Below are positions 19,741 to 21,102 of a DNA stretch of 64,000 nucleotides, piece by piece. How positions within the stretch are numbered: position 1 is the stretch's first letter; each line of letters starts with the position of its first letter. The notes under the pieces were generated by a model, which was given only the letters and a program-made list of their open reading frames with translations, had not been told where the DNA came from and did not search any database. Made by a program: the position numbers and the translations under genes. This stretch comes from a virus, in IMG/VR virus record IMGVR_UViG_3300034196_000067, positions 108,796 through 172,795 of that record; one strand, given 5' to 3'.

Positions 19741-21102
19741 ATGACCTTTGATGAGAGAAACGCGGGCTGGAAAGGGATTCCTTCCCGCGAGTTCCGACAG
19801 ATCCAGACCCGTAGCTCGTCTCCTCGCGTCTGGAGCGTCCAGGTGGAGGGGAGAAATATCACCACGGTCTGGGGCCAACTCGGTGGCGCGATGCAGGTCG
19901 CGAATGAGATCGCGAATGGCGTCAACATCGGGAAGAAGAACGAGGTGAGTCCCGAGGACTATGCCCTCTACCTGGGTCGGGAGAAGTGTCGGAAGAAGCA
20001 CTGGGAGGGGTATCGAGAGATCGACGCCCAAGGGAACTTCCTCGACCAGCACGTTGCTGAGGTAGACTTCGACAATCCGCCTCTGAACCTATGCTTCTGG
20101 AAACCGGACAACTCTCCTGGCGCTGGCATTCTCAAGAAGGCTGAGGCGAAGAAGGTCATCTACGTTCGCAAGATGAACGGCCTCATGTTTTGCGCCTGGA
20201 GCAACTCGAAGGGACAGGTCTTCCTGACGTCCAGGAAGATGCTCCGACAGCAAGACGATGAAGTCGGGACGAACTACACCTGGAACGACCGATTCCCTCA
20301 CCTCATCCAGGCGATGGAGATGCCTCCAAGAAGCCTCATCCTCGGAGAGCTCATCGCCTTCGACAAGAACAACCGCGACAACCTCCACACCATCGAGAGC
20401 TACACCAAGTCCCTCACTCCCCGGGCGCTGGAGGATCAAGCAAAGAACGGTTGGGCTTGGTTCTACATGTGGGGAGTCGCGTTCTGGGACGGTCAGAACT
20501 TCGTATCAGACGTCCCGCTAGGTGCTCAGTACGAACTCATCACGAGCAAGTTCGCAAACAAGTTTCCGATCATCCATCCCCAGATCGTCAAACCCGGGCA
20601 GTACGAAGGCTTCGAAACCCCTGCCCACTTCCGCAAGCTGGCAGAGCAGTGGGGTTGGGAAGGGTTCGTAATGGTGGACCCCGACGCCCCTCTCGGCGAT
20701 CGCGGGATGAACTTCAAAGGCAAACCCGACAGGCCAGGCAAGGTGGCCGCCAAGGTGAAGCCGGAGTACGAGGACGACTTCGTCGTCTTCTGGGACCCTG
20801 AGAAGGGGTACGGCGAGTATTCGACCAAGGGCCGGTACGGCGGCAAGGGGATGGAGTCGGCGTGCTTGTACCAGTACAACTCCAAAGGCGAGCTCATCTA
20901 CATCGCCAACTGTGGCTCCGGGTTGACAGAGGAGATGAAGACCAACGCCCACCCTTCACAGTTTCCCCAGGTCTGGAAAATCAAGTACACCGAAAGACGT
21001 TACCAGTCTGACGGCGACAAGACGAACGCTCTGGACCACCCACGCCTCGACTCCCCTCGTACAGACAAGAAACCTGACGAATGTATCAACCCCAAACTCT
21101 GA
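19741..21102 (+). CDS. WGR-domain protein fused to an ATP-dependent polynucleotide ligase (KxNG nucleotidyltransferase motif, RNA-ligase-like)
   Basis: N-terminal WGR (FRQIQ..VWSVQVEGRNITTVWGQLGG). Ligase motifs I VRKMNG, III LILGELIAFD, IV EGFVMVDP, V AAKVKPE. Confidence 0.7.
   Translation: MTFDERNAGWKGIPSREFRQIQTRSSSPRVWSVQVEGRNITTVWGQLGGAMQVANEIANGVNIGKKNEVSPEDYALYLGREKCRKKHWEGYREIDAQGNFLDQHVAEVDFDNPPLNLCFWKPDNSPGAGILKKAEAKKVIYVRKMNGLMFCAWSNSKGQVFLTSRKMLRQQDDEVGTNYTWNDRFPHLIQAMEMPPRSLILGELIAFDKNNRDNLHTIESYTKSLTPRALEDQAKNGWAWFYMWGVAFWDGQNFVSDVPLGAQYELITSKFANKFPIIHPQIVKPGQYEGFETPAHFRKLAEQWGWEGFVMVDPDAPLGDRGMNFKGKPDRPGKVAAKVKPEYEDDFVVFWDPEKGYGEYSTKGRYGGKGMESACLYQYNSKGELIYIANCGSGLTEEMKTNAHPSQFPQVWKIKYTERRYQSDGDKTNALDHPRLDSPRTDKKPDECINPKL

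Follow-up and report, generated by a model that had tools for sequence, protein, structure and literature searches.

The 64,000-nucleotide stretch of viral DNA analysed here (positions 108,796 to 172,795 of IMG/VR record IMGVR_UViG_3300034196_000067; hereafter the window) carries, at 19741..21102 on the plus strand, a gene whose product joins a WGR-like domain to a nucleotidyltransferase ligase, and the question that this locus raises is whether the enzyme seals RNA or DNA. An initial annotation, made from the sequence alone, took the K-M-N-G form of motif I as the mark of an RNA ligase and placed the protein in a dispersed RNA-repair toolkit resembling phage systems that repair tRNAs cut by anticodon nucleases. 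From the domain folds, motifs, homology and gene neighbourhood shown by the analysis, we conclude that the gene very probably encodes an ATP-dependent DNA ligase that would seal DNA nicks for an uncultured jumbo-type phage of roughly 200 kb. The initial interpretation stands in part. Its WGR fold, its ligase and the RNA-repair genes are borne out; the assignment as an RNA ligase and the membership of the toolkit are not.

The open reading frame (ORF) runs from ATG to stop in our ORF listing exactly as first annotated and specifies 453 amino acids plus a stop codon; an identical protein is encoded on a 209,442-bp metagenome contig of the Joint Genome Institute (JGI; 3300034159, Ga0370509_0000001). 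Searched against 5.8 billion proteins, the sequence had 277 homologues at E<=1e-3, and the best 120 of these are nearly all 445-475 amino acids long and cover the query over its full length, with the same architecture in most; many of the 120 sit on contigs of 100-210 kb. Because there are many full-length homologues, 11 related loci on IMG/VR viral contigs and a confident AlphaFold2 model (mean pLDDT 92.7), we do not regard the ORF as a chance frame. The clade is found only on viral or metagenomic contigs, and no relatives of the ligase were present in 185,579 bacterial and archaeal species genomes, scanned at one genome per species. The relatives on viral contigs mark the window as part of a large uncultured phage (roughly 200 kb, jumbo-type), as do its 42 tRNA genes, its HNH endonuclease and endolysin-like genes and its many small ORFs that have no annotation. 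The ligase was placed in no family by a search of PHROGs, NCBIfam gave only a partial LigD match that is meaningless, and phmmer with this sequence alone found nothing in the PDB but spurious matches to KorB, so that family profiles were needed. We therefore worked with an alignment of 32 family members (A1) and with a broader profile (A4) built from 102 ligases having the same N-terminal domain, which we call the N-domain.

All six nucleotidyltransferase motifs (Table 1) are invariant in A1, including residues K144, G147, E203, E307, G308, K338 and K340, and the motif I lysine and glycine (K144 and G147) are kept in every one of the 32 members of A1 and the 102 N-domain ligases. The alignment of the motifs thus bears out the earlier call of a covalent nucleotidyltransferase ligase with K-M-N-G at motif I. 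Motifs III, IIIa, IV and V occur in order within the adenylylation domain and align with those of archaeal ligases and of the ligase encoded by African swine fever virus (ASFV), and 117 of 119 members carry the RxDK of motif VI. The C-terminal domain is beta-rich, with predicted strands that fit an OB fold. Over residues 144-444, a span running from motif I through motif VI, the A1 profile matches DNA ligases of Thermococcus and Pyrococcus (E 2e-8), and its OB region aligns with 'ALRFPRYVALREDK' of the archaeal ligases. DNA ligases and capping enzymes are characterised by an OB domain at the C terminus that bears motif VI. In the RNA ligases Rnl1-Rnl5 the nucleotidyltransferase domain is joined instead to family-specific non-OB modules at the C terminus (or N terminus), and to our knowledge none of them has a C-terminal OB domain with motif VI. 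Of the Pfam models, PF01068 (DNA_ligase_A_M) is matched by 30 of the 32 members of A1 at E<=0.1 (best 3e-12) and PF04679 (the ligase OB domain) by 10 of them, although the window ligase taken alone stays below the PF01068 cutoff.

Profile and fold comparisons separate the two kinds of ligase. When the A4 profile was compared with the PDB, DNA ligases were matched at E 1e-49 to 1e-17, mRNA capping enzymes at about 1e-6 and RNA ligases (5d1o, 2vug) at 5e-4; this classification by hidden Markov model (HMM), which had been proposed as a check on the RNA-ligase assignment, favours DNA ligases. A Foldseek search of the PDB returned DNA ligases as all 50 of the top 50 matches (E down to 9e-17), with the ASFV ligase ranked first and aligned over about 470 columns, that is, over the whole protein. 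In the viral library BFVD the top 50 are led by DNA ligases (phage, crAss-like and pithovirus), with capping enzymes after them, and no RNA ligase is found among the top 50 fold matches in either the PDB or this library. On both sequence and predicted fold, then, the protein appears to be a DNA ligase, an outcome that the initial annotation had itself named as telling against its reading, and the combination of a DNA-ligase-type core, an OB domain with motif VI, the profile scores and the folds speaks against its identification as an RNA ligase.

Motif I varies within the family itself. It reads KxNG in 108 and KxDG in 5 of the top 120 family members; members at 35-41% identity (the loci L013, L015 and L017) have canonical KRDG or KYDG, as does a phage relative that lacks the WGR-like domain, and the third residue is D in 65 and N in 33 of the 102 N-domain ligases. 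The biochemically proven DNA ligase of ASFV has KRNG (Lys151/Asn153; PMC6344480), and in the HMM alignment its motif I, VQRKRNGVR, is the consensus of the phage ligase family. The presence of KxNG in the ASFV DNA ligase and of KxDG in the deeper branches indicates that KxNG is a variant inside DNA ligases, and it fails as a mark of RNA ligases. A second position in the active site points the same way. In human Lig1, Asp570 pairs with Arg871 as a salt bridge (PMC6344480). When the R871 position was mapped through the alignment of A1 with archaeal ligases and the residue numbering of that paper, the sequence NALDHPRL, which precedes motif VI, was found to place D432-H433 at the positions of Lig1 R871-F872, so that the window protein has N146 in motif I and D432 at this position. 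In the 120 members examined the position holds D, T or I and in no case R, which parallels Leu402 of the ASFV enzyme. Judged from these alignments, KxNG together with the missing Asp570-Arg871 salt bridge is an active-site variant held in common with the ASFV ligase rather than a sign of RNA specificity.

The N-domain is the other unusual part of the protein. Its predicted secondary structure comprises four long and two short beta strands and one long helix (amino acids 71-88), and it folds as an antiparallel beta sheet packed on that helix, as does WGR (PF05406). It carries the signature WGQLGG (19870-19887; W44-G45-Q46) and an invariant N-x-G-K-K-N-E loop (19924-19944), and the linker that follows it ends in a conserved DFDN-x-P-x-N-L-x-F-[WY]-K-P-x-N segment (20065-20115). 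In fold comparisons the N-domain scored 9.5 against 2ra8, a bacterial WGR protein, 6.9 against the N-terminal domain of the ASFV ligase, and 6.6, 6.1, 5.8 and 5.7 against the WGR domains of PARP1 and PARP3, with every other fold below 5. Sequence models see little of this: the Pfam WGR model does not match the ligase at E<=1 and matches only 2 of 32 relatives (E 0.003) and 1 of 102, and the match of the N-domain profile to the WGR region of 2ra8 is marginal (E 0.056). The W-G-R signature is itself mostly absent: of 119 members, 84 read WGQ and 5 read WGR. The fold comparison, the 2ra8 profile match and the JGI annotation of several family members as 'predicted DNA-binding WGR domain protein' together indicate that the domain was correctly called WGR at the level of fold, although the Pfam model misses the sequence and the signature is WGQ. 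The phage domain therefore differs from the WGR domains of PARP1, PARP2, PARP3 and 2ra8 in having Q for the R of W-G-R and in being missed by the Pfam model, and from those of PARPs in being fused to a ligase and not to an ADP-ribosyltransferase. The further suggestion that the vault PARP carries a WGR domain found no backing, as the PARP4 structure paper names MINT, VWA, VIT and BRCT and never 'WGR'.

When the N-domain profile was searched against 1.84 billion representative proteins, 1,547 clusters (at 50% identity) were found to carry the domain, which lies at or near the N terminus in the 150 best matches listed. The ligase lysine and motifs IV and V are kept in all of the 102 full-length N-domain members examined, of which 73 match PF01068, 37 OB_2 and 34 PF04679, and annotated ATP-dependent DNA ligases from cultured phages begin with this domain too.

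The nearest characterised relative of the phage ligase is the ASFV ligase (AsfvLIG, NP419L; PDB 6imj/6imk/6iml/6imn), which has the same domain order: an alpha/beta DNA-binding domain at the N terminus, then an adenylylation domain and then an OB domain. Its structure 6imj is the best PDB match of the A4 profile (E 1e-49), and the alignment enters the ASFV N-terminal domain (residues 60-114), where ASFV 'EGKNLGKKNATT...' is matched to the 'N-x-G-K-x-N-E' loop that is invariant in the family and helix alpha3 falls on helix 71-88 of the phage ligase. The two N-terminal domains are homologous; the GKKN loop is conserved in both proteins and the Lig1 Asp570-Arg871 pair is missing from both. Overall identity is only about 16%, however, and AsfvLIG differs in having lost motif VI, which the phage ligase keeps, in its degenerate W-G-x signature, and in coming from a eukaryotic virus. 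The ASFV N-terminal domain has been described as a 'completely novel' fold, in which the tip of the Lys89-Lys90-Asn91 loop and helix alpha3 touch DNA; it mimics the DNA-binding domain of Lig1 in encircling the nick, and its deletion abolishes DNA binding and ligation (PMC6344480). We found no paper in the searchable literature that links this domain to WGR. From profile alignment and fold comparison, we place the N-terminal domain of the ASFV enzyme, supposed until now to be unique, in the widespread WGR-like domain family.

Fusions of WGR domains to ligases in bacteria have already been reviewed, in a delta-proteobacterial and Planctomycetia NT-OB_2-WGR cluster and as a third Prochlorococcus AD-ligase (Williamson & Leiros 2020, PMC7470946). 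These proteins and those of cultured phages resemble the window ligase in fusing an N-terminal WGR-type domain to an ATP-dependent ligase core; the N-domains of the window ligase and of the Klebsiella phage 05F01 ligase (BBK09335) share 34% identity. They differ in having OB_2 (PF14743), where the window clade has an archaeal-like OB domain (PF04679) with motif VI, and in that motif I is mostly KxNG in the window clade.

If the gene neighbourhood reflects function, the ligase keeps company with DNA metabolism. We sampled 12 close relatives (ligases 46-67% identical) over up to 10 kb on each side. In all 10 that have an upstream flank a class II ribonucleotide reductase lies upstream of the ligase, and 10 of the 11 with a downstream flank have a YpsA/DprA-like gene downstream; the YpsA/SLOG gene is a conserved downstream partner of the ligase and not part of the enzyme. 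None of the 12 has RtcB, a gene like that for major vault protein (MVP) or RlaP within these flanks; an Rv2179c-like exoribonuclease lies near the ligase in one of the 12, and an AAA_33 kinase likewise in one. In the window a DUF4419 protein sits between the ligase and YpsA, its gene being confined to near-identical contigs and absent from 17 other family loci, and in locus L018 the corresponding place is taken by a PIF1/Dda-like helicase. Locus L020 has, 2 kb downstream of the WGR-ligase, a separate RNA ligase of 341 amino acids (PF09414; 13264-14289, plus strand), followed by an Rv2179c-like exoribonuclease, YpsA and a 24-tRNA array; the presence of this RNA ligase beside the WGR-ligase indicates that the lineage uses dedicated RNA ligases. 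Downstream of the ligase, the module of AAA+ ATPase, DUF1257, 661-amino-acid, DUF2997 and DUF3150 genes is conserved in L005, L006, L009-L011 and L019. A scan of positions 19000-23000 of the window for promoters and terminators gave nothing over the shuffled expectation. We also note that a conserved protein of about 1,050-1,160 amino acids, with a partner of about 450-510 amino acids, is encoded divergently upstream of the reductase and ligase genes (L009 2254-5715, minus strand; also L005, L007, L008, L010, L011 and L018-L021, and weakly L013, L015 and L016); the two members scanned (L009 and L015) have no Pfam match.

Most of the RNA-repair genes that had been listed for the window are present (Table 1). 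RtcB is unmistakable, the nucleotidyltransferase proves to be RlaP, the exonuclease is an Rv2179c-like 3'-5' exoribonuclease and the P-loop kinase resembles polynucleotide kinase (PNK). The longest ORF for RlaP (4506-5471, plus strand) overlaps a tRNA-Glu gene (4570-4642), and its PHROG and Pfam matches begin at amino acids 74-102; because of the overlap, we think the real start is probably the one given in Table 1. The putative HAD phosphatase fared less well, as its DLDDT motif is there and its family assignment is only weak: it matches phrog_1238 (labelled 'phosphoheptose isomerase') and not a PNKP phosphatase, and we rejected it as a PNKP phosphatase because it has no similarity to the HAD_PNKP protein of L006. 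Sets of RtcB, RlaP and tRNA genes are a described feature of jumbo phages (PMC7824862), and with its RtcB, RlaP, PNK-like kinase and tRNA array the window resembles known phage RNA-repair systems (T4 Pnkp with Rnl1/Rnl2; RtcB with RlaP). It differs from them in that its ligase falls in the DNA-ligase branch, with an OB domain and motif VI, and lacks synteny with the repair genes in relatives. A toolkit is therefore largely present, whereas membership of the ligase in it is unsupported by the neighbourhood, and the RNA-sealing enzyme of the toolkit is RtcB.

The tRNA array, which covers nearly all amino acids, is interspersed with ORFs for RlaP, an AAA protein and an HNH protein, and an array of similar order (Trp, Gly, Tyr, Lys, Lys, Gly, ...) lies downstream of ligase-YpsA in L008, L012, L020 and L021. 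ARAGORN also called an unusual tRNA-His with anticodon ATG at 2676-2746 of the window and, at 19284-19355 of L008, a tRNA with anticodon TCA, called SeC and possibly an opal suppressor. The full-length tmRNA, which ARAGORN did not report, lies just downstream of the DUF3150 gene, and the MVP-like gene lies directly upstream of RtcB. This pair is absent between DUF2997 and DUF3150 in L005, L006, L010 and L011, where DUF2997 adjoins DUF3150 or (in L010) the homologue of the 661-amino-acid protein directly precedes DUF3150, an arrangement that points to insertion of the MVP-like and RtcB genes in the lineage of the window. RtcB systems with SPFH/Band-7-type scaffolds were reportedly proposed by Burroughs and Aravind in 2016. 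PHROGs and Pfam scans placed no hallmark replication or structural genes in the window, and ten further ORFs between 38 and 59 kb yielded almost nothing beyond the endolysin-like match, which lies beside the HAD-like gene.

Table 1 Features of the ligase gene and of the surrounding window
Feature	Position	Strand	Basis or remark
42 tRNA genes	790-18143	+	ARAGORN
RlaP nucleotidyltransferase	from 4659	+	PF10127; phrog_388 (5e-47)
WGR-like / ATP-dependent DNA ligase fusion (probable), complete gene	19741..21102	+	ORF, homologues, AlphaFold2 model
N-terminal WGR-fold DNA-binding domain (predicted), aa 1-95	19741..20025	+	
Linker, aa 96-125	20026..20115	+	F110, F119, K121, P122 and N124 invariant in A1
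Nucleotidyltransferase (adenylylation) domain, aa 126-342	20116..20766	+	Invariant residues, archaeal alignment, PF01068
Motif I KMNG (K144-M-N-G147)	20170-20181	+	Lysine K144 predicted to accept AMP
Motif III LGELIAF (E203)	20341-20361	+	
Motif IIIa FYMWGVAFW	20461-20487	+	
Motif IV EGFVMVDP (E307, G308)	20659-20682	+	
Motif V AKVKPE (K338, K340)	20749-20766	+	
C-terminal OB-fold domain, aa 343-453	20767..21099	+	Motif VI, archaeal alignment, PF04679
Motif VI R440-T-D-K443	21058-21069	+	R440, D442 and K443 invariant
DUF4419 gene	21115-22104	+	Pfam 3e-65; starts 12 nucleotides past the ligase stop
YpsA/SLOG (DprA-like) gene	22130..22756	+	Pfam YpsA 1.4e-15, DNA_processg_A 2.4e-11
Rv2179c-like 3'-5' exoribonuclease	23396-23974	+	
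Gene module: AAA+ ATPase, DUF1257, 661-aa protein, DUF2997, DUF3150	25795-30165 and 35765-36799	+	AAA+ ATPase: phrog_8638 (1e-116)
MVP-like protein, 851 aa	30668-33223	+	PF11978 shoulder 1.6e-27; vault repeat PF17795 3.5e-10
RtcB	33339-34520	+	Pfam E 5e-122
tmRNA, full-length	37132-37510	+	Rfam RF00023, 114 bits, E 8e-44
PNK-like P-loop kinase	41926/41941-42336		AAA_33; phrog_505 'polynucleotide kinase'
Endolysin-like protein	48475-49038	-	phrog_315 (5e-27)
Small HAD-like protein with DLDDT	49194-49685	-	Family assignment weak

Homology suggests how such an enzyme would work, in its chemistry, its substrate and its contacts with DNA. Lys144 of motif I would attack ATP to give ligase-AMP, the AMP would be passed to the 5'-phosphate of nicked duplex DNA, and attack by the 3'-OH would then seal the nick. 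Catalysis would be the work of the adenylylation domain and of the OB domain through motif VI, all three domains, the WGR-like one included, would encircle and clamp the nicked duplex, and the conserved G-K-K-N loop and the helix at amino acids 71-88 are predicted to touch the duplex beside the nick. The enzyme would thereby seal nicks during replication, recombination and repair of the phage DNA as part of a putative DNA-metabolism module with the ribonucleotide reductase and the DprA/YpsA-like protein. ATP-dependent DNA ligases of jumbo phages have been treated as replication components (PMC7824862).

Several observations pull away from DNA nick sealing. Taken alone, the window ligase scores only 17.3 bits against PF01068, below the cutoff of 26.2, and a second DNA ligase may lie elsewhere in the genome of about 209 kb, of which the window covers 64 kb. 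A HAD_PNKP-type phosphatase lies near the ligase in 4 of the 12 relatives, which fits the healing of either DNA or RNA ends, the ligase adjoins a tRNA array in 6 of 14 family loci, on differing sides, and the window ligase itself lies 1.6 kb downstream of the end of the 42-tRNA array in a plus-strand block with the exoribonuclease, RtcB and the tmRNA. The phosphatase and the tRNA arrays, like the presence in the window of RtcB, RlaP, the PNK-like kinase, the exoribonuclease and the tmRNA, would suit a ligase that repairs RNA or tRNA by sealing 5'-P/3'-OH ends made by the PNK-like kinase and a HAD phosphatase, in partnership with RtcB and RlaP to counter anticodon nucleases, and weak cross-matches to the PF09414 RNA_ligase model occur in 2 of 32 and 11 of 102 members. 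We nevertheless consider such a role improbable, given the OB domain with motif VI, the wide gap in profile scores and the lack of RNA ligases among the top folds, the KxNG of a proven DNA ligase and the KxDG of the deeper branches, the absence of RtcB, the MVP-like gene and RlaP from the relatives' flanks, and the dedicated RNA ligases of the lineage (RtcB in the window and the PF09414 protein in L020). Adjacency to the tRNA array was considered as evidence for an RNA role and rejected, since the side of the array varies and the array is absent in half of the loci, whereas the reductase and YpsA are constant; we read the array as a variable region inherited within the lineage, which may be co-regulated with the ligase. 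That an enzyme of DNA-ligase fold was recruited to seal RNA beside the 42 tRNAs we regard as likewise improbable, and as less likely than the descent of the ASFV enzyme set out below.

A different objection grants that the protein seals DNA and asks whether it is replicative. It might instead be a dedicated break-repair ligase, tolerant of mismatches like the base-excision-repair ligase of ASFV, in which the WGR-like domain senses 5'-phosphorylated nicks or ends as in PARP1-3 and which works with PNKP-like end-healing enzymes, Okazaki fragments being joined by another ligase of the phage or host. The closest characterised homologue is indeed an error-prone repair ligase, also with KxNG and also without the Asp-Arg fidelity salt bridge; the nearest non-ligase folds are PARP WGR domains, and HAD_PNKP genes lie near some of the relatives. 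We think this specialisation unlikely, though not negligibly so, because no other DNA ligase was seen in the part of the genome covered by the window, because the conserved linkage of reductase and ligase suits replication equally well, and because the R of W-G-R is not conserved. A GTP-dependent nucleotidyltransferase of the mRNA-capping type, or a catalytically dead WGR protein that regulates by binding DNA, would also be compatible with some of the data, in that capping enzymes too have motifs I-VI and an OB fold, 6 of the 102 N-domain ligases match PF01331 weakly, and standalone WGR transcription factors occur in jumbo phages (PMC7824862). Both were rejected as highly improbable: capping enzymes reach about 1e-6 where DNA ligases reach 1e-49, and they fall below all DNA ligases in the fold comparisons, and the catalytic residues are all invariant across the family. 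A DNA ligase that would act in replication, recombination and repair remains our preferred account of the gene.

An ATP-dependent DNA ligase encoded by a phage is ordinary, and fusions of WGR to ligases have been recorded before, both in published work and by JGI annotation. What the analysis removes is a false lead, namely that KxNG denotes an RNA ligase and hence a new tRNA-repair enzyme; what it adds is a tie between the ASFV ligase and a huge phage family whose WGR-like DNA-binding domain Pfam almost never detects. One tentative reading, which we offer as a possibility short of an even chance, is that the N-terminal domain and KxNG of the ASFV enzyme came from this large, mostly phage-borne family of WGR-like ligases (at least 1,547 clusters), that the phage enzyme is mismatch-tolerant, and that the WGR domains of PARPs and the N-domain of the ligases may have a common origin as readers of nicks and 5'-phosphates. 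The link with ASFV supports the prediction that the phage ligases would be of low fidelity. The N-terminal domain and Asn153 of the ASFV ligase have been published as unique and proposed as drug targets, and the link gives many homologues in which that domain may be studied.

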